Made by a program: the position numbers and the translations under genes. From an uncultured Demequina sp. (GTDB taxonomy: Bacteria > Actinomycetota > Actinomycetes > Actinomycetales > Demequinaceae): a stretch of 59,443 nucleotides of DNA. The stretch spans positions 1-59,443 of the forward strand of contig NZ_CAJXJX010000001.1 in assembly GCF_913055775.1 (NCBI RefSeq), given 5' to 3'. The notes below the pieces were generated by a model. It was not told the origin of the DNA. It was given only the letters and a program-made list of their open reading frames with translations, and made no database searches. Of the stretch, positions 29,949 through 46,955 are shown piece after piece (the stretch's first letter is position 1; each line of letters starts with the position of its first letter).

Positions 29949-32900
29949 TCGACGTCACCTTCTTCCTCGTCGTCGTCTTCGACCAGTGCCGCGTCGCCTT
30001 GAGCGCCGGCACGTCGCAGATTCTCCTCCAACAGTCGATCGAGTACCTCGACGCGAGCGGCAGGGCTCACGGTCCAGCGTTCCATCTGACGGTAGGTGTG
30101 AAGACCGTGGTCGAGTGGAACGTCGTCCCAGCCGTAGGCCGCCATGACCGCCTCGTCGAGCTGGACGTGAATCTCTCGCATGCGCGCAACGTCAGCGTCA
30201 GCCGAGTCCACGACCGACGGGTCGTTCACGAGGTTGTAGAGCTTGGTGAGACCGAGATCGCGGCGCAGCATGATCTCGCGGCGCTCAGATTCCAACACAC
30301 GGCCAACCTCATCGAGCTCATCCGTCGACTCGGGCCGGGGGAAAGTCTCAAAGACGTCCGATGGCGTATAGCGCAGATCCTTGCGCATGGTGGTGCCGTA
30401 TTTTGATACCCACAACTGATGAAGGGAACTGCTGACTACCGCCTGGAACGCCCGAGACTCGGTCGCAAACACAATGAGCGCGTGGCTCGGAACGATTCCC
30501 GCGGATGCTCGCACGGGCATTAGGGTATTACTCGTCTGCGCAATCGCCACGTATTCGCTAAGACCTGCGATTGCCAAACGCATCTTTGCTCGACTTCGAA
30601 GAAACTGCCACCATGGCACTGATCCCGTCGATTTGGTCTTCTTTGCCCGATCAGGACGTACCATCCTGTCCAGCCGCATGAACGGCTCCTTGAAACACTC
30701 CGCTTCGCTCAATGTGCGGTCTCGCATGTCAATGACCCAACGCGACGGCGCACTGTCAGGTCGGGAGTTGAGATCGTCGCCGTTTAGGTAGGGCCGGACT
30801 ACTTCTCGGTTCTTTGGATCCGCCTTGATTAGCGCTTCCGCTTCGCTCGGGTCGAGCACAAAGCCGTCGCCAAAAACGATGCACCCCTGAAACGCGATGC
30901 CAGAATTCTCGCTCAGACGCGCGGGTCTCGCATCAATTCGCCCCGCGGCCTCGAGCAAGGATGAAATGCGTCGGACCTCCAGGCCGTCAGCGAATCTCGA
31001 CACCAGCTCCGAGACCGCGCCATCGCTCCCCCACAAAGCCGCGTACTCCAGGTTTGCACTCTTGGCAGGCCACGCGCGCGACTGGACACAACGTGCGATC
31101 GTGAAACCCGACGACACCAACTGATCGAGTCCGACTTCTCGCGTGTCCCCTTGCGCCACCGTATTTGTCGCAATAAGACCCAATGAGCCGTGAGGAGAGG
31201 CCAGCGAATGTGCACGTAGCAGGAAGTAGGCAACGAGGTCAGCGGATCCGCGAGTTCCGCCAGCGAGTACGTTTACGAACCAGTCGCGGACTCTGGCACC
31301 AACAGCAGCCGTCAGCTTCTGCCCGCCAAGAAATGGCGGATTGCCGATGACCGCGTCGAAGCCGCCGCGCTCCATGACGTCCGGCACGGCGAGCGGCCAA
31401 TGGAGAGGCTTCCAGCGCTCGTAGTCCGTCTCGACCTCGGGCGTGAGCCCCACGTCGACGATGGAGTCGAGCATCGTGGAGTCTCCTCCACCCGCGCCAT
31501 AAGCACGGTCGACAGCGATGCGAAGGCTCTCGTACGCCTCGTTCAGCTTCTTGCCTGGCTTGCCGCCGAGTGGAAGCCCTGCGGCGATGATCCCGTCCGC
31601 GACGTGCGCAAGTTGCGCGACGGTCTCCTGGTACTCGTCCCAGAGGCGCCGCTTCGTGCGCGATGAGCGTTGGGGATCCGCATCGTCCACCGCCGTCGCG
31701 AGGTTGCGCCGCAGGTCGACCGCACGACGAATCGTCGCATCCACGTCGAGCGACTCCACGTAGCCCGCTTCATCCCCTTCGGCCGCCCAGAGGAGGCCGG
31801 CGTGCTGGCTGCGCGACCGGGAAGCGACCGCATCGGGATCAATGTGCAGCGCCTCGAGCTGCTTCGTCGACGTGATGCCCAGGAGCGAGTTGCCATGCAA
31901 CACCTTGTCGTCCACGAAGGAGAACGGCAGGTCCGGGTCGAGCGAGACAAGCCACAGTGAGATCTTGCACATCTCGACTGCCATGCCGTTGATGTCAGCG
32001 CCGTACAGGCAGCGCGCGACCACCTGGCGGCGCGCTCTCACGCGGAGGTGCTCGGCCTGAGCGGATGCAACACCCTCATCCGTCCACGCCTCGATCACCT
32101 TGTCGGCGAGGTACTCCGCAGCCGAGACAAGAAACGCTCCAGAGCCGCAGGCGATGTCCGCGACCTTCAGATTGAGGATCTGATCCGAGGAGAGGAGGCG
32201 CCACTCGTCCCTGTTGGGCGTCTGATACGGCCCAGGCTGGTAGACCACGGGCTCGAGCGCGTGCAGCACTACTTCTCGCGCGAGGTCCTTGGGCGTGTAG
32301 TGCGCGCCTGACGTTGCTCGAGACGGCGTCTCGGCGACGATAAGGCCACCTACCGGAATGACCACCATGCGGTCACGGAGGTCGCGGCGGACAGCCCCAG
32401 CGAATGGTCGCAGACGGTCGCGCAGGACCAGGTCGCGCGTCACTGCCACGAGCGCCCTCTCGGCGTCGTCGTCAATGTCGGCTGCGAGTGCCTTTGCCAG
32501 AGCGGCTCCTGAGGGCGCCTTCGCCGCCGGCTGAGAAGCCTTGACCCATGCGAGCACGCTCTGGGAAAGCTTCTTGAGGTCGGGGCTCTCCGCGGCCAGG
32601 CCCTCCATCGTCTCAAGGGGGATCTCCGGTTCCTCACCTTCGCGTCCGAGCAGGCCCAGCGTCGTCTCATCGACCTCCCGCGCCGTATAGCCGAGCAGAC
32701 CCTCGTAGATGTAGCCGATCTGCTCGACATCCACGTCTCGGAACGAGACCGGACGCCGCTGACCGCCGATGGTGGCGTACTGCAGTGCCCGGAGCACTTC
32801 AAGCATGACGCGGTCGGAGACGGTCACGGCAAGGGCCCCGACCTCGTCGCGGGACTCGAGGAACTCAAACCTCGACGGGTCGAACAGGGACCCGCCGTAT

Positions 32901-34009
32901 GAGGGAAGCCGCATGTCTTCAGCACTGACGCCCTCGTATAGGGCACGCGAGGTCGCCAGAAGCCGGTGCCAGGTGTCGCTTGTCGCGTCGAGCGACTCGG
33001 CGTCTTCGTGGTTGAGGCGCCGTTCGAGGGCTCGCAACTGGCCGCCCATACCGTAACCATCGACGTAGAGCGCGGACTGCGGCATCATGGCGCGGTCCTC
33101 GGCGAAGAGCAGGAACACGACGCGCATCATCACCGTCACCGCCGCGTCATAGACGCGATGGCGATCCGCGGGCAGCGGATCCGGCTTGCCCGTCTCACGC
33201 GCTGACAGCAGTCCGTCCGAGAAGGCGCCCACCAGCAGTTCGACCGCCCGGCGCACCTGAGTGCCCAGGGCGACCGTGAGGTCCTCAGCTGCTGTCACCG
33301 AGTCCGCGAAAATGGCGGCCGTTCGCTCCTCGGGCTTGCCTCCTGCGAGTCGGATGGGGCTCAGGAGCGCGAGGAACCCGTCGCGCACGTCTGGCTCCTC
33401 GATCCACGTTTGGGCGTCGACGATTCCGGACGCCACCAGGGCATCCTCCGGCGCGCTGACAAGACCCCACCATCGGCCGTCCGTGACGACCCCGACGGGC
33501 ACCTTGTTCTCTCGCAACAGGTGTTCCATGCGATCGATGGGGCTCGCCGCCCAGCCATCGGTTCCTGGCTCGCGCAGGTTTGTGGCCGCGTCGACGGCTA
33601 GAACGAGCATGTGCGCCGAGCCTTCTCGCGAGAAGGCGAGCGTGGGAGCCACTGAGACGGAGCCGTCTGGAGACTCGATGGGCTTCAGGTGAGGCGAGGA
33701 TGCTGCGTCAACCAGATGGGTGCCCCACCCCGCTGTCGACTCGAGAACTACCCTGACCCACGCGTCCCGGGCGTCGCGGTACGAGACTGCCGCGCCCTCC
33801 GCTGAGGGGTCGCTCGTGTGCGCGTCCCACGTACGCTCAAACTGCGGCTTCGCGTCGCGAAGCGCGGCCTTGGCACCGTCGTCCATGGCCGGAACGCCTT
33901 GCGGCCACACCTTGCGCAATGCGGGGACGGACACGAAAGGTCCGTCGCGATCGACCAACTCGAGCCACTCGCGATAGCGCTGGGCAACCGGCTTCACAGG
34001 CGGCTTCAT
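29945..34009 (-). CDS. drmMI: DISARM class I adenine methyltransferase DrmMI (Eco57I-like)
   Basis: GAHYTP, DIACGSGAFL (SAM binding), GNPPF catalytic motif, C-terminal TRD; located between drmD and drmA with ATGA/GTGA overlaps. Confidence 0.88.
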   Translation of the reverse strand: MKPPVKPVAQRYREWLELVDRDGPFVSVPALRKVWPQGVPAMDDGAKAALRDAKPQFERTWDAHTSDPSAEGAAVSYRDARDAWVRVVLESTAGWGTHLVDAASSPHLKPIESPDGSVSVAPTLAFSREGSAHMLVLAVDAATNLREPGTDGWAASPIDRMEHLLRENKVPVGVVTDGRWWGLVSAPEDALVASGIVDAQTWIEEPDVRDGFLALLSPIRLAGGKPEERTAAIFADSVTAAEDLTVALGTQVRRAVELLVGAFSDGLLSARETGKPDPLPADRHRVYDAAVTVMMRVVFLLFAEDRAMMPQSALYVDGYGMGGQLRALERRLNHEDAESLDATSDTWHRLLATSRALYEGVSAEDMRLPSYGGSLFDPSRFEFLESRDEVGALAVTVSDRVMLEVLRALQYATIGGQRRPVSFRDVDVEQIGYIYEGLLGYTAREVDETTLGLLGREGEEPEIPLETMEGLAAESPDLKKLSQSVLAWVKASQPAAKAPSGAALAKALAADIDDDAERALVAVTRDLVLRDRLRPFAGAVRRDLRDRMVVIPVGGLIVAETPSRATSGAHYTPKDLAREVVLHALEPVVYQPGPYQTPNRDEWRLLSSDQILNLKVADIACGSGAFLVSAAEYLADKVIEAWTDEGVASAQAEHLRVRARRQVVARCLYGADINGMAVEMCKISLWLVSLDPDLPFSFVDDKVLHGNSLLGITSTKQLEALHIDPDAVASRSRSQHAGLLWAAEGDEAGYVESLDVDATIRRAVDLRRNLATAVDDADPQRSSRTKRRLWDEYQETVAQLAHVADGIIAAGLPLGGKPGKKLNEAYESLRIAVDRAYGAGGGDSTMLDSIVDVGLTPEVETDYERWKPLHWPLAVPDVMERGGFDAVIGNPPFLGGQKLTAAVGARVRDWFVNVLAGGTRGSADLVAYFLLRAHSLASPHGSLGLIATNTVAQGDTREVGLDQLVSSGFTIARCVQSRAWPAKSANLEYAALWGSDGAVSELVSRFADGLEVRRISSLLEAAGRIDARPARLSENSGIAFQGCIVFGDGFVLDPSEAEALIKADPKNREVVRPYLNGDDLNSRPDSAPSRWVIDMRDRTLSEAECFKEPFMRLDRMVRPDRAKKTKSTGSVPWWQFLRSRAKMRLAIAGLSEYVAIAQTSNTLMPVRASAGIVPSHALIVFATESRAFQAVVSSSLHQLWVSKYGTTMRKDLRYTPSDVFETFPRPESTDELDEVGRVLESERREIMLRRDLGLTKLYNLVNDPSVVDSADADVARMREIHVQLDEAVMAAYGWDDVPLDHGLHTYRQMERWTVSPAARVEVLDRLLEENLRRAGAQGDAALVEDDDEEEGDVE

Positions 34010-37000
34010 GACACCCTCCCTGCCGCCGCATCGGCCGGCGTCAGCGCGAACACGACGGCCGCCGCAGAGACGTACGGCTGCACATCCACGTACCGCGCCC
34101 GAAGCTCGGCGATCTCTCGCGCTTCCTCGTCGGCTAGTTCGTTGAGTCGCCGCTCAATCGACTCGATGTCCTTGCGGTACTGGCGCAACTGGTCGGGGTT
34201 CATCGAGAACAGGGCCTCGCGCTCCTCCTCGAGCGAGCGCCGCATCGTCGCCACGGACTCTTGCAAGTTGAGCCGGAATGCGCCATAGATTTGCTCCGCG
34301 CGCGCGATGTCCGCGGCCTCGCGCTTCTCAAGGTCGCTACTCACGCTCTCGCGCCGCGCATCGGCCCGGCGATGCATCGCGTTTTCCAAACGCGTCCGCA
34401 AACGCCCTCCCTCGGCAGTCCATAGCTGCGAGACGTGACTGCGAAGGTCTGCGTCGGCGAGCGTGAGATCCGGGTCGTCCAAGGTGCGTTCGAGCAGCGC
34501 CTCGACCTTCGCCTCCGCGAGCGCCTGACCTCGCAGACGTACGCCCGCGAGGAAGACCTCCTCATGAAGGCGGAGACCCCCGCGACCCACGAGTACGAGA
34601 CGGCTCGCGGCGGCGACGCAGGACTCCTCGAGATCGTCGACCACCACGGCCGTGACGCGGTTCATGGCGGCGTCGGCGCTGAAGAGCGATGCCCGCAGGG
34701 TTCGCGACGCCTTCCGCATGAGCGCATGACCCAGGTGCACCCGCACGATGGTCTCGTCGGGATCGTCCTCAGCGATGTCGTCTGCGAACGTGATGGGACG
34801 GAGCGTGTCCGGCTGCAGGCGCGTGGCGAGCCCTGACGTCGCGTTCTGCCAGCCGCGAGCCAACGGAGGGAGCTCGAATACCTCAGCGTCTGTCAGGTCA
34901 CTGCCGACCTCGCGAAGCGCAGGCTGCGCGGTCACGGCGAGGGCTGTGTCGACGACCCTCCTGCCGTTAGACGCAGTGAGGTGCATGCGCTCCTTCTGAG
35001 AGTCGAAGGTGCGAGCCAGTTGCGTGAGTTCTCGATTGAGCTGGGCGCTGCCCGCCATCGCGCGGTTGACGGCTTGGGTGTTCTTGTCCGCACCCGCCTT
35101 TTCCGTTGCTATCGCGATGCTGCCGAAGTGACCCTGAATGTCAGAGTCGATGACGGGGTTCACGGAACCGAGGTCACCCGCAATGGTGGACACCTTCTCG
35201 GCGACGCGCCGCATGAAGTCCATGTCTGCGGCATACGTCGCTGCGGTCGACTCGGGCAAGAACTGGAAGATCTGCGGAGTTTCGGTCTGTCCGTACCGGT
35301 CGATGCGGCCGATGCGCTGCTCGAGCCGCGACGGGTTGAACGGGACATCGAAGTTGACGAGACGATGGCAGTGATTCTGAAGGTCGATGCCCTCGCCTGC
35401 CGAGTCGGTGGCGACGAGCACGCGAATGGGATCCTGGGCGGGATTGGCGGTGAAACGCGCGCGCACGTCGGCGCGTTCCTCCGCATCCGTCGAGCCCTGG
35501 ATGACTCCCAGGCGAGACTCGTCGTATCCGCGCTGCCGGAGGTTGCTGACGATCCACTCGAGCGTGGAAGCGTACTCCGTGAAGATCACCACGCGCTCGT
35601 TGGACCAGTGAGGCTGGGCCGGGCGACAGATGGCGTCGAGCCACTCGATCAGGGCGCTCAGGCGGGAGTCCGGCTTGTGCTCGTACGACAGGCCCCATGC
35701 GCTGAGTGTCGCGATCTGCTCCGGCGTCGCCGCGACCAAGGGATTGTTGCCCTTCGACTTGCGGAGGGCATCGAACTCCGGGTGCTCGACGGCGCCCTCT
35801 TCCTCGTCGCTCTGGCTGCTCCCTAGGACTTCCAGGTAGTAGTCATCCTCCGGTTCCCACTCCGAGCTCCCTGTTGCGGCTTGGGCGTAGAGACTCAGCG
35901 TGGACGCGAACGCGTACGGACTCGACAGGAAACGCTTCTTGAGCAGCATCGACACGATGTCGCCGCCGCGCTTCGTGTCGTTGGCGCGTGCACTCTCGGT
36001 CAAGATGCTGTCGAGCGTTTCGAACGCCTCCGCCTCGTCATCAGAGGGGCTGAAGGTGATCGTCTTGACTTCGCGCTTGCGGAAGTTCTTCTCCGCGATG
36101 TCGCGCTTGAGTCGGCGCACGGTGACCTCGGCGAGAGCCTTCTCGTCGACGAGTGCGCCGCGGCTGAAGCGGCGGTCGTCGACCATCTCGAGGAGAGCGG
36201 TGAACGACTCGGTGTGCCCGTTGTGCGGCGTGGCGCTGAGGAACAGGCGATGCTCGCATTGCTTCGCTAGCGCGCGTACCGCTCTCGTGCGCTGGCTGTC
36301 CACTGCGTAGCCGCGAGCCTGGCCAACCCGCGACGGGCTCGAGGGCGCGGCATGGTGAGCCTCGTCGACTACGAGGATGTCGAACGCGTAACGCCGCGCT
36401 GAGTTTTCGATGCCGACGTCGCTCAGGACGTCGCGCACCAGGCGCTGGGCACGCAGGCCGGGGAGCCACGCCATGCTGATGATGACCCGGGGGAAGAGCT
36501 TGAGCGGGTTGGCCCCGAGCCCGTGGGTGCGGCGGACCTCTGCCATGAGCTCGCTGTTGACGATGACGAAGTCGAGACCGAACTTGTCCCGCATCTCCTC
36601 CTGCCACTTGGTGGCGAGGCTCGGAGGACACACGACCGCCACGGAGCGGGCCCGGTGACGGAGCAGGAGCTCCTGGATGACGAGACCGGCCTCGATGGTC
36701 TTTCCGAGGCCCACGTCATCTGCGAGCAGCAGGTTGGCGCGCGGTGCCTGAAGCGCCCTCCGCAGTGGCTCGAGTTGGTAGGCCTCGACGTTTGCGCCAG
36801 AACGGAAGGGAGCTTGGAAGGCCGAGGGGTTCGCGGTGGTGACCGCTCCCCACCGCACAGCGTCTACGTATGCCGCGAGCATGTTGGGGTCATCGAAGCC
36901 GTCTTCGGAGATCACCTCCGGCAGACCTTGATCCGGCGCGATCGAATGACCGACCTCGAGTTCCCAAACCACGTCGAGTTCCTCGCCCAGGCGGTCTTCC

Positions 37001-37158
37001 GCGAGGGACTGGAGCGACACCACGTGGTTGAGGCGCGGCCGACCGTCGTCTGCAGGGCTGCGTGGCAACGCCTGTTCTCGCACGTCGGAGACGGCCCAGA
37101 CCTCTCCGCGGACGTCAACGATCTGGCCGGGCTCTGGCGTGGTAGGTACGGCAGTCAA
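34006..37158 (-). CDS. drmD: DISARM SNF2-like helicase DrmD
   Basis: YQLEP, LLADDVGLGKT, DEAHH, LSATPHNG, EGIDLQ and RLEQRIGRIDR motifs; TTG start with AGGGAAG RBS and a TAGTCT -10 candidate at 37211-37216. Confidence 0.92.
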   Translation of the reverse strand: MTAVPTTPEPGQIVDVRGEVWAVSDVREQALPRSPADDGRPRLNHVVSLQSLAEDRLGEELDVVWELEVGHSIAPDQGLPEVISEDGFDDPNMLAAYVDAVRWGAVTTANPSAFQAPFRSGANVEAYQLEPLRRALQAPRANLLLADDVGLGKTIEAGLVIQELLLRHRARSVAVVCPPSLATKWQEEMRDKFGLDFVIVNSELMAEVRRTHGLGANPLKLFPRVIISMAWLPGLRAQRLVRDVLSDVGIENSARRYAFDILVVDEAHHAAPSSPSRVGQARGYAVDSQRTRAVRALAKQCEHRLFLSATPHNGHTESFTALLEMVDDRRFSRGALVDEKALAEVTVRRLKRDIAEKNFRKREVKTITFSPSDDEAEAFETLDSILTESARANDTKRGGDIVSMLLKKRFLSSPYAFASTLSLYAQAATGSSEWEPEDDYYLEVLGSSQSDEEEGAVEHPEFDALRKSKGNNPLVAATPEQIATLSAWGLSYEHKPDSRLSALIEWLDAICRPAQPHWSNERVVIFTEYASTLEWIVSNLRQRGYDESRLGVIQGSTDAEERADVRARFTANPAQDPIRVLVATDSAGEGIDLQNHCHRLVNFDVPFNPSRLEQRIGRIDRYGQTETPQIFQFLPESTAATYAADMDFMRRVAEKVSTIAGDLGSVNPVIDSDIQGHFGSIAIATEKAGADKNTQAVNRAMAGSAQLNRELTQLARTFDSQKERMHLTASNGRRVVDTALAVTAQPALREVGSDLTDAEVFELPPLARGWQNATSGLATRLQPDTLRPITFADDIAEDDPDETIVRVHLGHALMRKASRTLRASLFSADAAMNRVTAVVVDDLEESCVAAASRLVLVGRGGLRLHEEVFLAGVRLRGQALAEAKVEALLERTLDDPDLTLADADLRSHVSQLWTAEGGRLRTRLENAMHRRADARRESVSSDLEKREAADIARAEQIYGAFRLNLQESVATMRRSLEEEREALFSMNPDQLRQYRKDIESIERRLNELADEEAREIAELRARYVDVQPYVSAAAVVFALTPADAAAGRVS

Positions 37159-37262: not shown

Positions 37263-39062
37263 TCAGGCACCTTCGCTGTGCGCTTCGGCCTCGATCATGA
37301 CGCTGTCTGGCGGCACCATGCCTCGGGTTACCATCCACTCCATCAGACGCTGAACGCCGTCGACCTTCTTCTTCGCATCCTGCGTGAGCTTCTTGCCCTG
37401 CCCGGAAGAGTCGTTGAGCTCCTCGAAGGCAAGCAGCTCGTCGGTCGCTTCGATGAGTGCATTGCCGGCAGCTACCCACTCAAAGCCCGGTGCCGTGTCG
37501 ACTCCAATGCGTTCGGCGACGAGGCGTGCCGCGAGGAGGTCTCGGAGTCCCGCGAGAACCGCCTCCGACGATTGAGCGCCGAGCGTTCTCCCGAGCGTGA
37601 CCGCGGCGCCACTCCCTACGCCGGCGACGCCACCAACCACCATCAGGCCGCCTGCGATGCCTCCCGGCCCCAAGGCCGACAGCCCTGCAAGAAAGGCTGC
37701 TCCTCCGGCAAGACCTGCAGGTGCAGCCGCGACGGCAAGAAACGGTGCTGCCACCACCGCCACACCTGCCAGAACAACTGCCGTTGCCAGCGTCGCGACG
37801 CGCTTGACTGCCCGTCCCTGTTCCTCCCCAACTGTCTTGACCTCGTCGACCGCACTCTCGACGATGTCGACGTAATTCTCGAGAATGCCAAAATCCATCG
37901 CTACTTGGCGACGCACTCCGGGCGCGACTTTGGAGTAGTCCACGCTGAATGGCAGTAAGGGATCCACTCGATAAAGGTGGACCAAGAACATCGGGATCTG
38001 TTCCGGAGCAACCCTGCCGTGCAGCCAAGGCTTCATGTCTCGGTCGAGGTCATTGAAGATCGGCCGCGACCCAGAATCCTCTGCGGCCTTCAGCGCCTGC
38101 GAGGCCAACCACTCGCGTATACCACGGACACGTTCCCGCTTGTCTTTAGCGCCTCGCTGAGGCGAAGTCTGCAGAGCCATCTCAATGCGGTAGGAGTGCT
38201 GCATCGTGACAGCGGTCAGGAGGTCGCTGCCCGACCACTCGTCCCGATCGGGACCTTCCCTAGACGGCACGACCCCGCGCTCTCGGACACCATAGAGGGC
38301 GTTGCCGATCTCCCTGCAAATCTGCGGCTGCTGCAGCGCATGCGCAACGCCGTGGTCCCTGAATCGCCCATTGAGCGCAAGATTGACAGCCTCCGGGATC
38401 GGGCCGCCAATCCCGCCCGCGTTCGGCACGAAGTCCAACGAGTTGTACACGTTGACCCACGCTTCCACCGCCGCAAGGTTCGCGTGCTTGTACGACTTCT
38501 CTGCGAACTTTCTGAAGGTTTGGCGCCCGAGCGGCGAGCCGAGAGTCAGGAGCAGCTTGATATTCATGCGCTCCGGAAGTTGACCGAGCAATTCCAACGC
38601 GACCGCGGTCCCAAGAGAGTGCGCGATAACGACCCAGTCACCTTCAGCGTTTCCGAGGCCGTGGAGTACACGCCTGATGATAGTTGGATGGCTGTCGGCG
38701 GCGAGGAACGCACGTACCTGGGCAAACATCGGGAAGGCCGCCACGCTCACCTTCTCCAGCGTCGCATCGTCCAGCGGCCCTCGGCCGGGAGCAAACCTCG
38801 CACCTGCGATGCGATGCGCCACCACGCTTTGCCGCGCAGCGAAGTCAGATCTGGCTACACGATCAGTGGCCTCGAGCGGCAATGTCCCTTCATCGCCGGC
38901 GCCGGTCGAGAGCAGATCGTCGTAGTGCGGTTCCACGGCATCCGTCAACTCAACGGGCGAACGCTGGCAGTCCGCCAGCGCCTCATTCAATGGCGTGCGC
39001 CAGTCCACTACCTCAGCACTATTGATTCCGTGCAGGAAAAGCACCCTCACTTGCTCTGCCAT
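37263..39062 (-). CDS. Uncharacterised alpha/beta-hydrolase (lipase-like) with a C-terminal Gly/Ala-rich hydrophobic hairpin
   Basis: FLHGI oxyanion motif, AHSLG nucleophile, candidate Asp (LDFVP) and His (DHG); long hydrophobic stretch AVVLAGVAVVAAPFL...GLSALGPGGIAGGLMVVGG. Confidence 0.75.
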   Translation of the reverse strand: MAEQVRVLFLHGINSAEVVDWRTPLNEALADCQRSPVELTDAVEPHYDDLLSTGAGDEGTLPLEATDRVARSDFAARQSVVAHRIAGARFAPGRGPLDDATLEKVSVAAFPMFAQVRAFLAADSHPTIIRRVLHGLGNAEGDWVVIAHSLGTAVALELLGQLPERMNIKLLLTLGSPLGRQTFRKFAEKSYKHANLAAVEAWVNVYNSLDFVPNAGGIGGPIPEAVNLALNGRFRDHGVAHALQQPQICREIGNALYGVRERGVVPSREGPDRDEWSGSDLLTAVTMQHSYRIEMALQTSPQRGAKDKRERVRGIREWLASQALKAAEDSGSRPIFNDLDRDMKPWLHGRVAPEQIPMFLVHLYRVDPLLPFSVDYSKVAPGVRRQVAMDFGILENYVDIVESAVDEVKTVGEEQGRAVKRVATLATAVVLAGVAVVAAPFLAVAAAPAGLAGGAAFLAGLSALGPGGIAGGLMVVGGVAGVGSGAAVTLGRTLGAQSSEAVLAGLRDLLAARLVAERIGVDTAPGFEWVAAGNALIEATDELLAFEELNDSSGQGKKLTQDAKKKVDGVQRLMEWMVTRGMVPPDSVMIEAEAHSEGA

Positions 39063-39067
39063 GGAGG

Positions 39068-42000
39068 CTAGCCTACAGATGGCGGCATTCGCCGGGAGCG
39101 CACGACGTCGAACCGCAGGGCGCGCGTCTTCGGCGCTGACAGGTCAACTCGCATCCACTCCGCCGACTCGCCGACCGCCCTTAGGAGATCGTCCTGCCGG
39201 GGTTGGCCAAGCAACTGACGGTAAGTGACGACCGTCCGAAGCAAGCGGTTGTAGTGCTGGAGCTCTCGACTCAGCGGCTGGGCAGGCACATAGCGCTCGA
39301 TAGCGGCGCCGTCGGAGCTCGGGTAGACCCAGAACGGCACGACCTCGGACTCGGCATCGGCCCGGCGTGCCACCGCGGACGAGAACGCGGCCTCCCAGGG
39401 GTCGTGGTAGCGGGCATTGAGAGCCGCCGCCCGATGATCATGCGCCACGTTCTTCCGCACTGCGTGACCCTTGTATCGATGGACCCGCCCCTCGCGCTGC
39501 TCAAGATCGACCGGGTTGCCGGGCAAGTTCCAGTGGACAATCGCGTGGCTATAAGTGTGAAAGTCCAAACCCTCCTGGCCCACGGACGTCGACGCAAGCA
39601 CAAACGGCCTGAATGGCGAGTTATAGGCGACGCGCACGGCACCTTCGCGCACCACTGCCTTGTCATCGGACTGCGCGCGGCCATAGCGCGCGGCGAAGTG
39701 ACTGCCGACGCGATGTGGCGTGAGCTCGATGCGCCCCGATTCGACCGAGACGTCTTCGACCACGTTGGTCGCGGTGCGTGTCGAGAGCGCCTCGCCGATC
39801 ACGGCAGATAGCCGGTCGGCGCGCGCGCCCGGAGCGGCATCCTGGAGCCCCTCCGACTCGAGCAGGACGTGGACATACTCATCGAGCACTGCCTGCAAGC
39901 CGCCGTCGATGCCGTGGTGCAAGACGCCGCGCCAGTACGCCTCGCCGTCGTGCGACCGCAGCAGCGCGATGATCTCCGGCTTGTTGAACATCGACCGCAG
40001 GCCCAGTGCGATCTCCACTGCGCCGCCTCGAAGTGCAGCGTCGCCGAGTGCATCAGCGCCGCCTGCAATGCGCGAGAGTGCGCGCAAGCCGACGACTCCA
40101 GGACCTGCGATAGCGACGTCAGTGAGCACCCCGGCGAGGTCGTGCGGAACGGCGCCCAGGCCGAGCGCGACCGCGCCGGACGGCTCTTCGACAGAGTCCA
40201 GACGTGCCAGAAGTTCGAGGTGCTCTCTCAGCCGGCTGGTGCCATCGCCCTCGTCGATCGCTCGCGCCCGGATCAAGCGCGAGAGCTCACGCGCGCTCAC
40301 GCCCTCGACGTGCCGGTCGAGCATCGCCGCCACAACCCAGTACCACCGCGAGTCCGTCGCGCCCCCGACGTCCGGAAGCGGCGGCAAGCGACCGAGCAGA
40401 GTCTCGATCCGCTCTCGAACAATCCCGATCATGTGTTCGCGATCCATCGGCATCGCGCCAACCTCTCGTGCGATGGCGAGCGGATCGGCGACGCGTGCAA
40501 GCGCGGTCGACGGGTAGAGCAGAGTCATGGTCGTGCCCGCAGGCCGGTACTGGAGCGGCGCGGTGGTGGCGCGCTGCTCGTCGTACGTCCGCCCGGCGAG
40601 CCCGGCGTGCTCGAGCGTCAGCCGCTCGGCCTCGTAGCTCGTCATCACTGCGATGGCCTTGGGAACCACAGCCCATGCCGAGAAGATCAGCCGCTTGGTG
40701 AAGCGACGCAGCTGCTCGTCCGCGTAGTCAGCTCCGAGCTCGTAGTAGGGCATCGACGGCGGGAGCCATGCGAGCTTCCATGCTCCGCGGTCGAGCACGT
40801 CGGCGAACAGCCCTCGGAGCTTGGCATTGCCTGGGTCGATTCGCGCGTACGACGCGATGTCGACTCGGCTGAGCATCCCGGACGCTTTCTCGAGGAGTCG
40901 TGCCAGCGACGGGTCACCGGTCTCGACAGCCGCCTCGAAGCGCTTGCGGATCTGGTAGGTCCCCCGCTCCATCAGGTTCAGCGGGTACGGACTTGAACGC
41001 CAGTACTCGAAGACATCGTGGCGGTCGAGATGCCTGGCAGCTGCGTCGAAGGTCACCCATGACCGTAGGTCCGCGCGATCGATCACCGCTCCGGGCATCG
41101 GCGCCTCGCGCAGCATCCCGTCACGGTCGGGTGTCGAGGCCAACCTCTCCATGCGGCTCATCACACGCCGCAGCGTCTGCTCGACGCGATCGCGGGCGCA
41201 GAGCGCCTCAGCGGTCGGCCCACCAGCCACTGCCGCTTCCCTCATCACGCGCAGATCGTCGCGGACACCCCGTGCCGCGTCCTCACCCGCGAGGAAGCCG
41301 ACGGTGCGTTGGAAGTCGTCGTAGTGGTCATCGCCACTCGGCTCGTCGGGAAGTGTGTACATCTTGAATGGAGTCGCGGACAAGAGCAGCACACGCGCCT
41401 TCTCGTGATCGAACACCTCTCGCGCGAGGTCCGATCCGTAGCCTTCGCCGTCGAGCACGTCCTTGAACCGCTGGAACTCATCGAGGATCACGAGGTCGGG
41501 CTCGAGGTGCTCGACCGCAGCGCGGGCGACCACGTGGCGTAGCCGGCCAACAAGGAGGTTGCGTTCGTTGCGGAGGGTCGAATTGGGTTGGCCGCGGGTC
41601 TTGCGAAACCTATCGACGCACGCCTCGAGTTCGTCAACGAGAGGTCGGCCCCGCGGCCCGATCGCGTGCTCAACGGCTCGACCGAAAGAGGAGACCAACT
41701 CATGGTCGAGGGTGCCGCGATCGAAGTCTCGGAGGTATTTCAGGAAGTTCTCCTCTCCCACTCGCCCCTGAAAGAAACGCCTCCAGGGGCGAGTCGCAAG
41801 CTTGCGCCTTCCCCAGTGCGCAGCAAGCATCCAGTAGAGAAGGACCCGCTCTGGGTACGCGCCGTCAGACGCGCCGTCGCTGAACGAGGTGCCAGGCGTG
41901 AACGAGATGAAGTTGACCTTCTCTGCGCGCAGGTCTTGCAGCGCCTTGGGTAGGAGCGTGAGCCGGTCAGCGTGCCGCAGCTCGGCGCCTCCGACGACAT

Positions 42001-42280
42001 TGAGACGGCTGAGGTTCTGTCGCGCGATCTGGGTGTTCGAGCAGATGTAGACGATGTCGATGCGGTCTTCCTTGTCCCACAAGTACTCGACAGCCTTGGC
42101 GATGACGCCCTTCGCAATCATGGTCTTGCCGAGCCCGACCTCGTCGGCCACGAGGAACCGCTTGGTCCAGTCCTCATCCGCCCATAGCCGCTGGAACGCG
42201 TAGTCGACCGTGCGACGCTGGAAGTCCTTGAGGCTGCCGAGAATTCTCTCGGTGTCTGGACGCTCTCGGGACGCACTCAT
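39068..42280 (-). CDS. SF2 helicase (third gene of the DUF6361-PLD-helicase module)
   Basis: LKDFQ, FLVADEVGLGKT, LDEFQRF, LSATP, GQEGLDFH and EQREGRVHRY motifs; ATG overlaps the PLD stop. Confidence 0.88.
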   Translation of the reverse strand: MSASRERPDTERILGSLKDFQRRTVDYAFQRLWADEDWTKRFLVADEVGLGKTMIAKGVIAKAVEYLWDKEDRIDIVYICSNTQIARQNLSRLNVVGGAELRHADRLTLLPKALQDLRAEKVNFISFTPGTSFSDGASDGAYPERVLLYWMLAAHWGRRKLATRPWRRFFQGRVGEENFLKYLRDFDRGTLDHELVSSFGRAVEHAIGPRGRPLVDELEACVDRFRKTRGQPNSTLRNERNLLVGRLRHVVARAAVEHLEPDLVILDEFQRFKDVLDGEGYGSDLAREVFDHEKARVLLLSATPFKMYTLPDEPSGDDHYDDFQRTVGFLAGEDAARGVRDDLRVMREAAVAGGPTAEALCARDRVEQTLRRVMSRMERLASTPDRDGMLREAPMPGAVIDRADLRSWVTFDAAARHLDRHDVFEYWRSSPYPLNLMERGTYQIRKRFEAAVETGDPSLARLLEKASGMLSRVDIASYARIDPGNAKLRGLFADVLDRGAWKLAWLPPSMPYYELGADYADEQLRRFTKRLIFSAWAVVPKAIAVMTSYEAERLTLEHAGLAGRTYDEQRATTAPLQYRPAGTTMTLLYPSTALARVADPLAIAREVGAMPMDREHMIGIVRERIETLLGRLPPLPDVGGATDSRWYWVVAAMLDRHVEGVSARELSRLIRARAIDEGDGTSRLREHLELLARLDSVEEPSGAVALGLGAVPHDLAGVLTDVAIAGPGVVGLRALSRIAGGADALGDAALRGGAVEIALGLRSMFNKPEIIALLRSHDGEAYWRGVLHHGIDGGLQAVLDEYVHVLLESEGLQDAAPGARADRLSAVIGEALSTRTATNVVEDVSVESGRIELTPHRVGSHFAARYGRAQSDDKAVVREGAVRVAYNSPFRPFVLASTSVGQEGLDFHTYSHAIVHWNLPGNPVDLEQREGRVHRYKGHAVRKNVAHDHRAAALNARYHDPWEAAFSSAVARRADAESEVVPFWVYPSSDGAAIERYVPAQPLSRELQHYNRLLRTVVTYRQLLGQPRQDDLLRAVGESAEWMRVDLSAPKTRALRFDVVRSRRMPPSVG

Positions 42281-44103
42281 GAGCGCTTCTCCGTGTGGAC
42301 GGACCACACGACGTTCCAGAGGTCCTCGAATCCCTCTGGCATCAGTTCGGCACCGCCGCGCGCCTGCCTGAGCTCGTCCATCGCCCCGGCGATGCGCGCA
42401 AGCGCCGCGTCGTCGCGCCCGACCGCGTGCACGAGCGGTTCGAACAGCGCCACGTCTTCGTTGGTACCGCGGTACCCGCCTTCCCAGGCCACCGCATCGG
42501 CGCCAGCAAGCTCCGCGAGCAGCGCGTCGTACGCGGGGTCACCGAGCAAGAAGATCAGGTATCGCAGCACGTCACGCTGAGACTTGAGCACCGAAGCGAA
42601 AGCGTTCTTGCGACGGTCGCCGACGTCGCCGGTGAGCTCCGCCTTCACCACGCACCGACGGCTCACCTTCGCGTCGCCAATGCCCGCCGTCGTCTCCAGG
42701 GCGACGAACGGCGTGACGTTATCCGTCGCCAGGGTCCAATCCATCACCTCAGCGAGCTCGCGAGCATGGCCGTCACGTGCGATGGAGATCGGCCATGCGA
42801 CGGTGCTGCCCGGCGGCTCGGGCGGCACCACCAGCGCGACAGCCACCTGCGCGCGATCGTCGTCGATCGTCGCGACGTGAGCAGAGACGCCTGCCTCCGC
42901 GATGGCGCGATGGAATGCCTCGATCTCATACGTGGTCGCGATCTGGGCGTCGTCGATCCCGTCCGCTTCGGCAGCCGATGCGGGCTCGAGCATACGTATG
43001 AGACCCGGCGCCTCTTCGGTCCCATCGAGTACTTGCTTGACGCCACATTCGCGCGTCGCGCCGCGCAGTACGACGTCGAACTCGACGTTCCCTCCCCAAC
43101 GCGCGCTCGTGAGGTTGGCACTGCCAGTGACGACCTCGGACGTGCCTCCGTCGAGATCCACGATGAAGGTCTTGGCATGAAGTCCTTCGTTGGCGCCGCC
43201 GAACTCGAAGCCGACGGCTTCGGCCTCGCCAACCTCCGCGCCGGCCTCTACCTCTGCCAAGCGCTGCAGGACGTTCGTGTCCCAGCCGGCGAGCGCATCG
43301 GCGCCAAGAAGGTCGAGCGACTCTTGCCGGGTGATCAGCGTCCGCGAGCTCGCAAGAGTGCCGAGCGAGCGAACCCCAGCGCGCGACAGGAACGGGCTGA
43401 TTGCGAGGACTCGTCGAGCACGGTCCGGGAAGGGCCACACTTCGGCGCCGTCAATGCCGATCGGCAGCAGCTCGCCCGAGGTGAAAGGCGCCGGCACGAC
43501 GAGCCGAGTCTCCCGGAGCGTGCTCGCGAGGCTGGCGATCTGCTGAGCGCGGTCCGTCGCAAGCGGGCGCAAGCCGAGACCGGGCAGGGCCTCAACGAAA
43601 CCGGCCATCGGCGCGGCGTCGATGGTCCCGCCCGGGGCCTCGTCGAGCACGAGCGCCGTATCCCACGACCGATCGAAGGTGATGTTCCGGCTCAGCACGA
43701 CGACCCGGTGAAGGAACGAGGACCGTGACTCGTCCGCGAATCGAAGCACCCAGACCTTGGGATGGAAGATCGCGCCGTCTCGTGGCGCCACCACCTCGCG
43801 GACGCTTTCCTCCACGAACAGCAAGATGCTGCGGTAGTTCGGCGGGACATGGATGCCGCCCGCCTGGCAGAACACTGTGGTCCGGTCCGCGTAGCGGCGT
43901 ACAGCCTCCAGCAATCGCACAGGGTCCGCTGCGTCCAGGTCCGAGCCGGCGATACGGTCCTCAAGCGCAAACGAGAGCGGCGCCAGAAGCATTGCGGTGA
44001 GGTCCATCGAGTACGTGGTGCCGACCGCGACGTCCACGCCCATGCCAGCGGGCGGGCGCAGCGCATCTGTGAGGAGCACGCGCGTCTCAGGGGTGAGTGT
44101 CAT
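42277..44103 (-). CDS. Phospholipase D-family nuclease-like protein with two HxK motifs
   Basis: FHPKVWVL...SRNIT and LHAKTFIVD...GSANLT...NVE; ATG 44103 overlaps the upstream stop. Confidence 0.85.
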   Translation of the reverse strand: MTLTPETRVLLTDALRPPAGMGVDVAVGTTYSMDLTAMLLAPLSFALEDRIAGSDLDAADPVRLLEAVRRYADRTTVFCQAGGIHVPPNYRSILLFVEESVREVVAPRDGAIFHPKVWVLRFADESRSSFLHRVVVLSRNITFDRSWDTALVLDEAPGGTIDAAPMAGFVEALPGLGLRPLATDRAQQIASLASTLRETRLVVPAPFTSGELLPIGIDGAEVWPFPDRARRVLAISPFLSRAGVRSLGTLASSRTLITRQESLDLLGADALAGWDTNVLQRLAEVEAGAEVGEAEAVGFEFGGANEGLHAKTFIVDLDGGTSEVVTGSANLTSARWGGNVEFDVVLRGATRECGVKQVLDGTEEAPGLIRMLEPASAAEADGIDDAQIATTYEIEAFHRAIAEAGVSAHVATIDDDRAQVAVALVVPPEPPGSTVAWPISIARDGHARELAEVMDWTLATDNVTPFVALETTAGIGDAKVSRRCVVKAELTGDVGDRRKNAFASVLKSQRDVLRYLIFLLGDPAYDALLAELAGADAVAWEGGYRGTNEDVALFEPLVHAVGRDDAALARIAGAMDELRQARGGAELMPEGFEDLWNVVWSVHTEKRS

Positions 44104-45302
44104 GCGGCGCCCCTCGCCTGGTAGAGGTCGCGCAGATGCGCTGAAGTGTTGGCCCAGCGGAAGTCGAGATGACCAAGGCCGCTCGATCCTGACCAGCGAT
44201 CGAGCGCCGACTGGTTCACGAACCGGGCACGGCTGCCCTTGATCTGGCGCTCGCGGGTCTCGGCGAGCCGCGCCGCGTCGCTGCTCGTCAGGAGATCGCC
44301 TCGGGAGCTCGCGATGTCCACCCAAGAATCCACGAAGGCCCGCGTCGTGTGGCGAAGCTGAGGGTTGTGAGTTCCGATGAGACGCCACCATGCAGCCCGG
44401 TCCCACGTCGCGGCGAGCTCGCGTGCGCCGGAGTCCTGCCACTCGGCGAGCGAATGCTCGTGGCCGACGAGCACATCCTCTCGTGCGCCTTTGCGCGCCA
44501 GCGCCACGTTGTAGACGAGTGCGGCGCCGTGAACAAGGACGCTGAAGCGCTGGGCGTGGTCGACGAGGTCGCGCAGATCCTGTGGGAGCTGATCCGTATT
44601 GCCAATTTCCCACGGGTAGCCCGCGGAATCCGGACCGTCCATGTTGGGCGGTGGGTTGCGCGTAAGCCACGCGAGAAGCGTTCCGCGTGTTCGCGAGGAG
44701 ATCCGGTACGAGAGGTACTCCTCCTCGCGGGCAGTCAGTTCGAAGGTCACCTGGCCCAGAAGTCCATCGGGTGGCGGAGGAAGCTCGGCGTCGATGCCGT
44801 CGCCGGGCAGCGTCATGTGCGAGTCGATGTCGTCGGCGTCGGCGGTCCTATCCCTCAGGGACCTGAAGTCCGACAGGCGACGGTAGTAGGCGTTCGGGGA
44901 AGATGCGTCCACCAAGCCCCAGTTGCCGAGCGCCGACCAGTAGACGTCACTAGGTAGCCTCTTGAGTGAACGCCGCGCGACGTTGCCCATGACGCCTTCG
45001 GTCTCACCACCCGCGAGCAGGCTGTCGATGAGGCGGTACTGCAGGTGCCGGAACTCCGCAGACATCTCCGCAGGCGTGTGCTTGCGCGACGCGGCTTGCA
45101 TGAGCCACGGCAGGAACAGGACATACCGAAGTCGTGTGTGCAGGGTGGACGTGCCGGGGAACATGGCATTCGCGAGGGTGTCGCGGATCGCGCCGATGCC
45201 CAGCTCGTCAATGGTCCCCTGCTCCCGGAAGAGGTCGACGACCTCCAGCATGCGGCGGCGCTGCTCGTCGTCATTGTCGAGCCATCCGAATGCCGAAGCC
45301 AT
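44100..45302 (-). CDS. DUF6361 family protein
   Basis: MASAFGWLD, DELGIGAIRD...FPGTSTLHTRLRY and PS.VYW..L..WG motifs. Confidence 0.8.
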   Translation of the reverse strand: MASAFGWLDNDDEQRRRMLEVVDLFREQGTIDELGIGAIRDTLANAMFPGTSTLHTRLRYVLFLPWLMQAASRKHTPAEMSAEFRHLQYRLIDSLLAGGETEGVMGNVARRSLKRLPSDVYWSALGNWGLVDASSPNAYYRRLSDFRSLRDRTADADDIDSHMTLPGDGIDAELPPPPDGLLGQVTFELTAREEEYLSYRISSRTRGTLLAWLTRNPPPNMDGPDSAGYPWEIGNTDQLPQDLRDLVDHAQRFSVLVHGAALVYNVALARKGAREDVLVGHEHSLAEWQDSGARELAATWDRAAWWRLIGTHNPQLRHTTRAFVDSWVDIASSRGDLLTSSDAARLAETRERQIKGSRARFVNQSALDRWSGSSGLGHLDFRWANTSAHLRDLYQARGAA

Positions 45303-45308
45303 GATGTG

Positions 45309-45384
45309 ATCCTGGCGCAATGGTGCGACATTTCCAACAGGTCGACGTGCCACGGTTGGCAATGTCACAGGGCTCTGCCAGGCT
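45309..45384. promoter_or_regulatory. Back-to-back PafBC/RecA-NDp-like promoters for the defence operon (-) and DUF429 (+)
   Basis: Minus: TGTCGC-ACCATTGCGC-CAGGAT-N6-ATG (45330..45309). Plus: TGTCAC-AGGGCTCTGC-CAGGCT-N6-ATG (45363..45384). The two arms form a 13/15 inverted repeat (45324-45338 / 45355-45369). Confidence 0.7.
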
Positions 45385-45390
45385 CACGCC

Positions 45391-46083
45391 ATGACAGTGT
45401 TGGGCTTGGACGGATGCAAGGGCGGATGGGCCGCCGTCGCCATTGACGACGAGGGTCTTGTTGGCTCGTTCGTGGCCGCGAGCATTGCCGATGTGGAAGC
45501 CGAGGCGAATGCGCGCTGGAACGTCGCGACGATTGTGGTCGATATCCCCATCGGACTGCCGGATAGAGGCCCTCGACAAGCCGACATCGAGGCTCGTAAG
45601 TTCATCGGGCCCCGCCGCAACAGCGTCTTCCCCACCCCTGTGCGCAACGCGGTCGAGTCGTCTACGTACCTCGAGGCATCAGCAGCATCAATCGCTGCGT
45701 CTGGCAAGAGCCTCAGCAAGCAGGCTTGGGCAATCACGCCGAAGATTCGCGAGGTGGATGCTCACATCAAGTCGGGTGACGCCTCCGCTCGCATTCTCGA
45801 AGGACACCCGGAAGTGTCATTCCGCGCAATGGCAGGAGAGTCGATCGACCACTACAAGAAGTCGCTGTCTGGTCTCCTCCTGAGGCGAGAGTTGCTTGCA
45901 AGCGAAGGAGTAGCGTTTCCTGAGGGCATCGAGCGCGAACTCAAGGGCTGCGACCTCGACGACCTCCACGATGCCGCCGCGATGGCATGGACGGCGCGGC
46001 GGGTTGAGCGTGGAGAGGTAGACAGCAAGCCGAACGCTCCCGAAGTCTTCTCCGATGGGCTGCCCAGTGCGATCTGGTACTAG
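45391..46083 (+). CDS. DUF429 family predicted RNase H-like nuclease
   Basis: VLGLDGCKGGW, VDIPIGL, R.AD..AR, EGHPEVSF and DDLHDA motifs. Confidence 0.85.
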   Translation: MTVLGLDGCKGGWAAVAIDDEGLVGSFVAASIADVEAEANARWNVATIVVDIPIGLPDRGPRQADIEARKFIGPRRNSVFPTPVRNAVESSTYLEASAASIAASGKSLSKQAWAITPKIREVDAHIKSGDASARILEGHPEVSFRAMAGESIDHYKKSLSGLLLRRELLASEGVAFPEGIERELKGCDLDDLHDAAAMAWTARRVERGEVDSKPNAPEVFSDGLPSAIWY

Positions 46084-46411
46084 CGAGAGCTCTAGGAGGG
46101 CCGCATATTCACGGCTCCTACGCTTCCTCAAGTGGATGCCGCCGTACGCCAGTTCTTCAGAGAAGGCCTATGCAAGGTCGAGCCAACGCTTTCTAGTCTG
46201 GAGCGGAGCGGTGGCTGCAACCTCGTGTTGCCTGGCAACAGGCCTAGTCTTTCTCCTGGTACTTTCTCTGACTTCGGAGTCAGCGGAGTCTCATATCGGC
46301 GCACTGTCGGTGCTGTCAATCCTGTGGCTCTGCTCAACAGCATGTTGGCTCATAGCCATGTCTCTCGCACCGAACCCCGACCTCGAGGTGCGGGTGAGTA
46401 TAGATGAGTGA
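46055..46411 (+). CDS. Hypothetical 2-TM protein (start uncertain)
   Basis: Two hydrophobic helices; stop overlaps the next ATG; atypical codon usage. Confidence 0.4.
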   Translation: MGCPVRSGTSESSRRAAYSRLLRFLKWMPPYASSSEKAYARSSQRFLVWSGAVAATSCCLATGLVFLLVLSLTSESAESHIGALSVLSILWLCSTACWLIAMSLAPNPDLEVRVSIDE

Positions 46412-46955
46412 GACAGTTTTCGGAGCAGTTGCATTGGCCCTCTTGTTGGCTTCGCTGCTCCTCAGTGCGGGATACGTCATCAAGGTTGTGGCACTAAGGC
46501 GGGAGTACACACGGCGTCTCTCTGGCGTGCCTCCGATAGAACGCAATCTCGAGTTCTCAGCGGTCGACCCAGAGGAGGTCGCATGGTCGCTCACTGAGTT
46601 GCAAGTCCGCGGGTACCCTTCGCGCAGCCAGTTTCAAGAGATGGAGGAGTCGTCACGGCTTATCTACGCTGCATCGCTCGAGGGCAAGGTGCGCACGAGT
46701 GGCCTCTGGGCGACCACGTTCGCGACCGTTTCGACGATTGTCGTGTCGATCGGCGCAACGCTGCTCGTCGGGAGGATCAGTGAGGGCAGCCCGCTGAGCG
46801 CGACGGAAATCGCGACGAACGTGCTCGTAGGAGCCGTTCTCGCGGCATTCGCGATGGTGCCTGGGTTCTCGGCAGTGATCGCGACGAACCAGCGACGGCG
46901 ATGGGAGAGCCTGCTCGAGTCCTACCGGAGCTCGGGGCGTGGAGGACAGCCCTGA
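46404..46955 (+). CDS. Hypothetical 3-TM membrane protein
   Basis: One N-terminal and two C-terminal TM helices; low-GC codon usage like the rest of the island. Confidence 0.6.
   Translation: MSETVFGAVALALLLASLLLSAGYVIKVVALRREYTRRLSGVPPIERNLEFSAVDPEEVAWSLTELQVRGYPSRSQFQEMEESSRLIYAASLEGKVRTSGLWATTFATVSTIVVSIGATLLVGRISEGSPLSATEIATNVLVGAVLAAFAMVPGFSAVIATNQRRRWESLLESYRSSGRGGQP

Follow-up and report, generated by a model that had tools for sequence, protein, structure and literature searches.

Caspase and alpha/beta-hydrolase pairs have been predicted in biological conflict systems (Kaur et al., PMC7159879), and in one described pair, LcHydrolase-LcCaspase, the 296-residue LcHydrolase is cleaved at Arg73 and Arg117 and, with the intervening piece gone, is lethal to E. 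coli (Evans et al., PMC12642450). In the cyclic oligonucleotide-based antiphage signalling system (CBASS), the phospholipase CapV, a latent lipid hydrolase, kills the infected cell at its membrane; CapV is patatin-like and requires a cyclase and 3'3'-cyclic GMP-AMP (PMC12480259). Here we describe a gene with affinities to these effectors in a 59,443-nucleotide stretch of DNA from an uncultured Demequina sp. (contig NZ_CAJXJX010000001.1, positions 1 to 59,443), which we refer to as the window. The gene lies between two defence systems, Azaca and class I DISARM (defence island system associated with restriction-modification), and an earlier note, made from the sequence alone, had taken its product for a new membrane-targeting effector.

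We find that the 599-residue product carries a conserved Ser-Asp-His triad in an N-terminal domain homologous to a set of short hydrolases, that its homologues have no protease gene beside them, and that their neighbouring genes change from locus to locus. We propose that the protein is a self-contained, membrane-anchored, latent lipase-type effector of abortive infection, a reading to which we give about an even chance, and we consider it probable that the gene has a defence function of some kind. What we rate as new is the placing of a known effector domain in a protease-free, single-gene architecture. A literature search returned no description of the full-length family, with subscription journals mostly uncovered and a mention in the supplement of PMC12642450 possible, and the words 'hydrolase' and 'lipase' are absent from the main text of the report on six Streptomyces systems (10.1101/2025.01.08.631966).

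The open reading frame (ORF) is a real gene under selection. Its orthologue in a second genome, G055, is 86% identical, with pS 0.33, pN 0.079 and dN/dS 0.19; identity by codon position is 89/94/74%, and across residues 421-495 dN is 0, with no amino acid change at all. Because selection acts on this frame, the long antisense ORFs lying over the gene are most likely shadows. The query has no match in Pfam (E 0.01), PADLOC, NCBIfam or PHROGs, and the sub-threshold Pfam matches across family members are confined to PGAP1, Ser_hydrolase and Abhydrolase_1. The family is covered by no curated model of Pfam, NCBIfam or PADLOC, so that current defence annotation would miss it. A word-index search recovered 22 proteins including the query, the closest homologue that bears a name being labelled Demequina sp. 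Around the gene, a scan for sigma-70 promoters and terminators gave no match, such scans being uninformative at this G+C content, and a scan for RNA elements listed none.

The lipase-type fold and complete triad that the earlier note had read from the letters are both borne out. In the AlphaFold2 model of the full protein, residues 1-260 form an alpha/beta-hydrolase, the remainder is helical, and confidence is very low at 416-485. The triad motifs begin at residues 147 (AHSLG, with Ser149), 209 (LDFVP, Asp210) and 236 (DHG, His237); these three residues are invariant among 22 close homologues, and the triad is complete in 183 of the 186 long members aligned (proteins of 520-900 residues together with single-ORF copies from fetched loci). 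In the other three, P0054, P0100 and L152, the catalytic Ser is replaced by Gly. P0100 additionally lacks the His and carries a 290-residue N-terminal extension with hydrophobic stretches.

Structural comparison of residues 1-260 by VIA-align returned esterases, thioesterases, deacylases, lipases, phospholipase-like domains and the Nir2 DDHD domain as ties at Z 10.3-12.5, so the fold names no substrate. Nir2 DDHD shares the alpha/beta-hydrolase fold (Z 11.7, root-mean-square deviation 3.6, 191 residues aligned), as does YdeN of the YdeN/RBBP9-like serine hydrolases (Z 12.5, deviation 3.4, 172 aligned); many unrelated hydrolases score equally well, at identities of 10-18%. In a Foldseek search with the model the top rows are mostly lipases, all at E >0.01. 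Clusters of DUF726 score 0.76-0.77 by features in the Atlas, below the reliable range and thus a lead only; the DUF726 Pfam model (PF05277) is not listed for any of the 22 members at E 0.1, and a search of 151 genomes for DUF726 gave no match, its controls being likewise silent. The ties in fold would also suit a defence hydrolase with a target other than lipid, such as a peptide bond, a protein acyl group or a small ester, in which the hydrophobic hairpin described below only localises the enzyme or senses injection. The resemblance of LcHydrolase to lipases and oligopeptidases alike (PMC12642450) and the existence of relatives without the hairpin point the same way; however, the leaning of the Foldseek rows towards lipases and the conservation of a membrane-type segment, which most simply fits a membrane substrate, lead us to think this reading unlikely.

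The interpretation in the earlier note stands in part; what the note missed is the homology of the N-terminal domain to protease-gated alpha/beta-hydrolase death effectors. The family profile also detects hydrolase domains of ~300 residues without the C-terminal half, and among 25 distinct short hydrolases eight have a caspase or trypsin next to them or fused to them, with several upstream of WD40-repeat proteins. The N-domain profile aligns with these 25 at probability 100% (E 4e-45, 244 columns), a score that has to be discounted in part since the short relatives were found with the family's own profile; the query domain itself matches one of them, L084, by BLASTP (30% identity, E 1e-10). 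LcHydrolase in turn matches L041 and L084 motif by motif, in a comparison made by eye only. Through these proxies the gene has in common with LcHydrolase-LcCaspase a homologous hydrolase domain with identical motif order, a variable insert that follows the first strands and precedes the nucleophile, and a defence-type context in Actinobacteria. At five of the related loci (L083, L065, L075, L078 and L087) the hydrolase domain is fused to trypsin or lies upstream of caspase/WD40 proteins, and the trypsin-hydrolase fusions could be self-activating zymogens.

The gene nonetheless departs from the LcHydrolase type in several respects. It encodes about 600 residues rather than about 300, with a fused helical domain and the hydrophobic hairpin, and its insert is about 20 residues shorter (as measured from different anchors) and has no conserved Arg-Gly columns. 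No caspase or trypsin adjoins full-length members at any of 75 loci, as probed with one caspase and one trypsin query, and Pfam proteases of these types are absent among the neighbours scanned. The LcHydrolase type has two conserved Arg-Gly cleavage sites spaced by about 44 residues. In three short hydrolases (L041, L045 and L048) there is a pair of Arg/Lys-Gly motifs at a spacing of 42-43 residues, and R94-G95-P96 of the query aligns with the second such site of L084 by BLASTP. Arg-Gly occurs in the insert of 78 of 182 members against 85 expected; among short relatives the figures are 9 of 20 against 10, so that this count lacks power. By analogy the gene may work like LcHydrolase, without being a member of the protease-linked module, and its insert at residues 51-125, which lies in the region excised from LcHydrolase, is a candidate autoinhibitory element.

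The C-terminal half is an all-helical domain interrupted by the hairpin. Folded alone from 138 sequences, residues 267-590 gave a confident helical domain (per-residue confidence, pLDDT, mostly >90; predicted template-modelling score 0.76) in which the hydrophobic segment is an unresolved insertion. The model has no Foldseek match at E 0.001, and VIA-align matched its final 100 residues to three-helix bundles of a generic kind, with Z up to 8.6; at the level of these models no known fold is identified for the domain, which does not show that the fold is new. An Atlas cluster of 446-residue actinobacterial proteins resembles it at a template-modelling score of 0.70. The 'coiled' C-terminus of the earlier note is indeed helical, in the form of a predicted three-helix bundle at about residues 499-579. 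Two sequence searches with the C-domain gave family members of 581-600 residues only and so brought up no case of this domain joined to a different N-terminal domain. A trimer prediction for the C-domain scored 0.02, which is no evidence either way.

The Gly/Ala hydrophobic segment, read in the earlier note as a hairpin of ~60 residues, is present and slightly longer, with 70 uncharged residues (422-491), and is a predicted membrane hairpin. In 181 long members the median length of the longest uncharged run is 69 residues; 98% of these members reach a 19-residue hydropathy >1.6 within it, and it is preceded by a basic N-side with a mean charge of +1.9. Its core at 446-475 is the most conserved region of the protein (0.73 versus 0.50 for the catalytic core). 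Its composition suggests that the hairpin is a membrane anchor. The family profile is matched at 1-455, and in five cases again at about 508-593, by six relatives with no uncharged run of 25 residues; they keep the hydrolase and the helical domain, so that the hairpin is a detachable insert. These relatives (P0127, P0082, P0157, P0121, P0116 and P0165) are 493-555 residues long and keep the triad.

The conservation of the hairpin core beyond that of the enzyme domain, its lack of change relative to G055 and the three members with Gly for the catalytic Ser would fit a different arrangement, with the helical domain and hairpin as the effector, forming pores or disrupting the membrane, and the hydrolase in a regulatory or helping role. 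Positions 409-491 of the family profile give a weak match to the hydrophobic hairpin of the ClyA-family toxins MakA, NheB and HblL1 (E 0.001-0.03), which likewise have a Gly/Ala-rich hydrophobic hairpin between long helices. The match is, however, confined to about 80 residues of low complexity, and unlike these toxins the protein has an enzymatic domain, while its gene has the surroundings of a defence island. The triad is retained nearly throughout the alignment, natural variants drop the hairpin yet keep the triad, and, among the proteins gathered here, matches to the C-domain alone are of 184-347 residues, consistent with fragments. The pore-like possibility raised by the earlier note therefore seems to us quite improbable.

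The family is mobile, stand-alone, patchily spread and actinobacterial. Among 50%-cluster representatives there are 537, 211 and 36 matches at E 1e-3, 1e-10 and 1e-30, respectively, and most of the best 150 are of 550-690 residues. Of the 78 genomes searched in the window's family, three have full-length copies, as do 6 of 401 in its order and 3 of 401 in its phylum, the last including G000 and one copy broken by a contig end. At E 1e-60 there are matches in 41 of 301 genomes of the family of a Mycobacterium record, 8 of 251 for Nocardioides and 9 of 301 for Curtobacterium, counts that include the seed genome and some partial or broken copies; the gene is thus found in about 14% of the mycobacterial-family genomes sampled and in 1-4% of the other actinobacterial groups. 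Atlas clusters are all bacterial and mainly from Actinomycetota. Collections of phages, plasmids and viral contigs gave hydrolase-domain matches only and no full-length copy. After the G055 orthologue, the next relative is L032/L033 in G009, which lies on a conjugative element among genes for TraG, TrwC, ParB, ArdC and a C5 methylase, and no Azaca. In a quick tree, the branches largely follow the host family. Four copies (L136, L158, L169 and L187) are interrupted by stop codons or split into two ORFs, a pattern often seen in decaying defence genes.

The association of the gene with defence islands was examined at 52 loci, with 37 control spots at a distance of 100 kb on the same contigs, through the two ORFs of at least 150 residues lying closest on either side. 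The 52 loci are the non-seed matches in the Mycobacterium, Nocardioides and Curtobacterium families, less two at contig ends (G1061, G1107) and one identical to L014 (G843); labels for the neighbours came from Pfam, PADLOC and BLAST against proteins already labelled. A defence-type gene is among the neighbours at 27 of the 52 loci and at none of the control spots (Fisher 1e-8); in the 34 genomes that provide both, the paired figures are 19 and 0. The partners include DUF4011/MTES helicases, GmrSD, Mrr and type I restriction-modification genes, a Lamassu-like SMC gene, LeoA, NERD-UvrD, DISARM and Azaca, and the most frequent is a large DUF4011/MTES_1575 helicase-nuclease, mostly on the opposite strand (L136, L144, L146, L161, L169, L173, L180, L182, L079, L081 and L067). 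Among 14 loci named earlier, seven lie beside McrBC, type I restriction-modification, bacteriophage exclusion (BREX), Zorya-like or TerY-P genes. Neighbours differ between sister branches of the tree. This is the pattern expected of single-gene defence cargo and points to such a role, with no proof of function; it agrees with one of the two alternatives offered by the earlier note, an independent single-gene defence, and with the enrichment of homologues in defence islands that the note had named as a check.

We envisage that the hairpin would hold the serine-hydrolase domain at the inner membrane, where the hydrolase would stay latent, by means of the insert at 51-125, until infection; once switched on it would likely cleave host lipid esters, damage the membrane and abort the infection. 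CapV is both a precedent for the killing of infected cells at the membrane and a model for the possible action of this gene, which differs from it in having the alpha/beta-hydrolase fold, no cyclase among the neighbours scanned and a built-in membrane segment. Abortive infection would be the outcome that such an effector serves, and latency and a lipid substrate are suggested by analogy with LcHydrolase and CapV. More speculatively, the fused helical domain might take over from the protease-sensor as trigger, responding to a bound phage product or to stress in the membrane; alternatively, a phage protease might do the cutting. In its fullest form, the proposal is of a one-gene actinobacterial immune system, in which a hydrolase effector has shed its caspase/NLR partners and fused to a helical sensor and a hairpin to become a self-triggering membrane lipase that senses infection at the envelope and destroys the membrane of its own cell; this version we put forward tentatively, as rather less than an even prospect. 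If it is right, the hairpin-less and catalytically dead variants would be natural tools for dissection, and independence from a protease would show a two-gene zymogen module collapsing into one self-gated protein. With its built-in membrane segment, the protein directs attention to lipids, so that the question of the substrate of LcHydrolase becomes directly testable, and such a system would matter for predicting the phage susceptibility of actinobacteria.

Several points weigh against this proposal. The context comparison was scored by hand with simple ORF calling, in related genomes whose kin are not independent; the local BLAST library, built from family loci, and the uneven use of PADLOC (77 neighbours at the loci, only 13 at the control spots) both favour the test set; and while four ambiguous loci were scored as negative, dropping five weak positives reduces the count to 22 of 52. 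The Arg-Gly cleavage motifs of LcHydrolase form no conserved column in the family profile, and latency is therefore only assumed. The substrate of LcHydrolase is itself unknown (PMC12642450). The C-side of the hairpin is non-basic, with a mean charge of -1.0, and, judged from the sequences of the hairpin-less relatives, membrane anchoring is not essential across the family. At 25 of the 52 loci no diagnostic defence gene adjoins; these copies lie between housekeeping genes (for example dnaX, glyS, ffh, pyrD and greA), some of them common to kin, and fixed spots recur in related genomes (the ffh locus in L150, L152 and L154; the greA-cbs locus in L167, L168 and L187). These last observations would be expected of a housekeeping or envelope/lipid-body lipase that hitch-hikes in variable regions into defence islands without defending, and such a role would also suit a tree that largely follows the host family and the highest frequency of the gene being in G840's family, the lipid-rich mycobacteria and relatives (41/301). 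It accounts poorly, however, for the complete lack of defence neighbours at the control spots, for the absence of the gene from most genomes searched in every group, for the change of neighbours between sister branches, and for the related hydrolase domains that adjoin caspase- and trypsin-type conflict modules, and we judge it unlikely on this evidence.

Within the window, the position of the gene invites another explanation, namely that its product serves Azaca, or else DISARM, as a fourth, accessory subunit, being co-transcribed and working with the helicase. As the earlier note had observed, only 5 nt separate the zacC stop at 39068 from the start of the gene, and the order is identical in G000 and G055; downstream, a gap of 104 nt separates the gene from drmD, whose longest start is at 37158. 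Elsewhere zacC lies directly upstream in L143, Azaca is near L141 and L153, and L158 and L177 have DISARM genes beside them. However, DUF6361 occurs in six of the 78 genomes of the window's family and the gene accompanies it only in G000 and G055, leaving four Azaca genomes without it; other genes follow zacC in G019, G020 and G023, and in G044 the contig ends inside zacB. In the fetched flanks (~7 kb) of the 52 further loci, Azaca is present at three and absent from 49, and DISARM genes are present at two. The Azaca-adjacent copies are on three separate branches of the tree. ZacA, ZacB and ZacC are all required and together, as a three-protein complex, cleave phage DNA in vitro (10.1101/2025.07.10.664194), and the query has no match to the PADLOC models of ZacA, ZacB or ZacC, which are taken by the three upstream genes. 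Azaca and class I DISARM are both complete without the gene, whose co-occurrence with them follows no rule. The earlier note was thus right to set the gene apart from canonical DISARM, all five drm genes of which are separately present, and its suggestion of a fourth component of the DUF6361 module is not upheld; membership of either system seems to us highly improbable.

Table 1. Positions in the window of the gene, the predicted parts of its product and the neighbouring genes
Feature	Position	Strand	Basis
599-residue coding sequence; family with hydrolase, helical domain and Gly/Ala hairpin	37263..39062	-	ATG start; dN/dS 0.19 against G055
Alpha/beta-hydrolase domain, residues 1-260	38283..39062	-	AlphaFold2 model; VIA-align Z 10-12.5; hhalign to short hydrolases, probability 100%
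Ser149 codon, predicted nucleophile (HSLG)	38616..38618	-	Ser in 183/186
Asp210 codon, predicted triad acid	38433..38435	-	Asp in 186/186
His237 codon, predicted triad base	38352..38354	-	His in 185/186
Variable helical insert in hydrolase, residues 51-125	38688..38912	-	Low pLDDT at 90-98 and 105-109; position relative to relatives; PMC12642450
All-helical domain, first part, residues 267-420	37803..38264	-	Separate AlphaFold2 model, pLDDT mostly >90
Uncharged Gly/Ala segment, residues 422-491, predicted membrane hairpin inside helical domain	37590..37799	-	pLDDT <50
C-terminal three-helix bundle (predicted), residues 499-579	37326..37568	-	AlphaFold2 models
Azaca zacA (DUF6361), zacB (PLD) and zacC (helicase), upstream neighbour	39068..45368	-	PADLOC ZacA 5e-125, ZacB 2e-165, ZacC E 0; Pfam
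DISARM class I drmD, drmMI, drmA, drmB and drmC, downstream neighbour	23494..37158	-	PADLOC
UG5 reverse transcriptase-nitrilase fusion	20347..23454	+	PADLOC RT_UG5-nitrilase E 8e-231
DUF429 gene	45391..46083	+	Pfam
183-residue ORF at island edge	46404..46955	+	No Pfam, PADLOC or PHROGs match

The island as a whole has a G+C content of 64.6%, compared with 70.0% and 67.5% on its two sides. By third-position G+C content (GC3), the gene (0.708) is, as had been remarked, more AT-rich than both zacC (0.798) and drmD (0.822), and only 2.3% of 554 long ORFs in the genome, whose median is 0.90, are as low. This is not special to the gene: values just as low are found in drmC (0.710) and in the reverse transcriptase and DUF429 genes (0.714 each), and low GC3 therefore marks the mosaic make-up of the island. 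ZacC extends 21 residues beyond the end of its PADLOC match (39068-39130, reverse strand), and this tail differs from that in G055 until a sequence shared by the two just before the start codon of the gene; the region may mark an insertion junction.

Two family members, L009 and L010, are labelled Bifidobacterium breve and Sporosarcina; their neighbours (LppM, acyl-ACP desaturase) or G+C content (64%), together with their position in the tree, look actinobacterial, and mis-binning or transfer is possible. The reverse transcriptase-nitrilase gene is convergent with DISARM, and G055 carries one too. The DUF429 gene is divergent from or adjoins zacA in four of the six Azaca loci of the window's family (the window, L031, L231 and L234), and in two Azaca loci a NERD-like gene lies beside it; the DUF429 gene is possibly an Azaca accessory.

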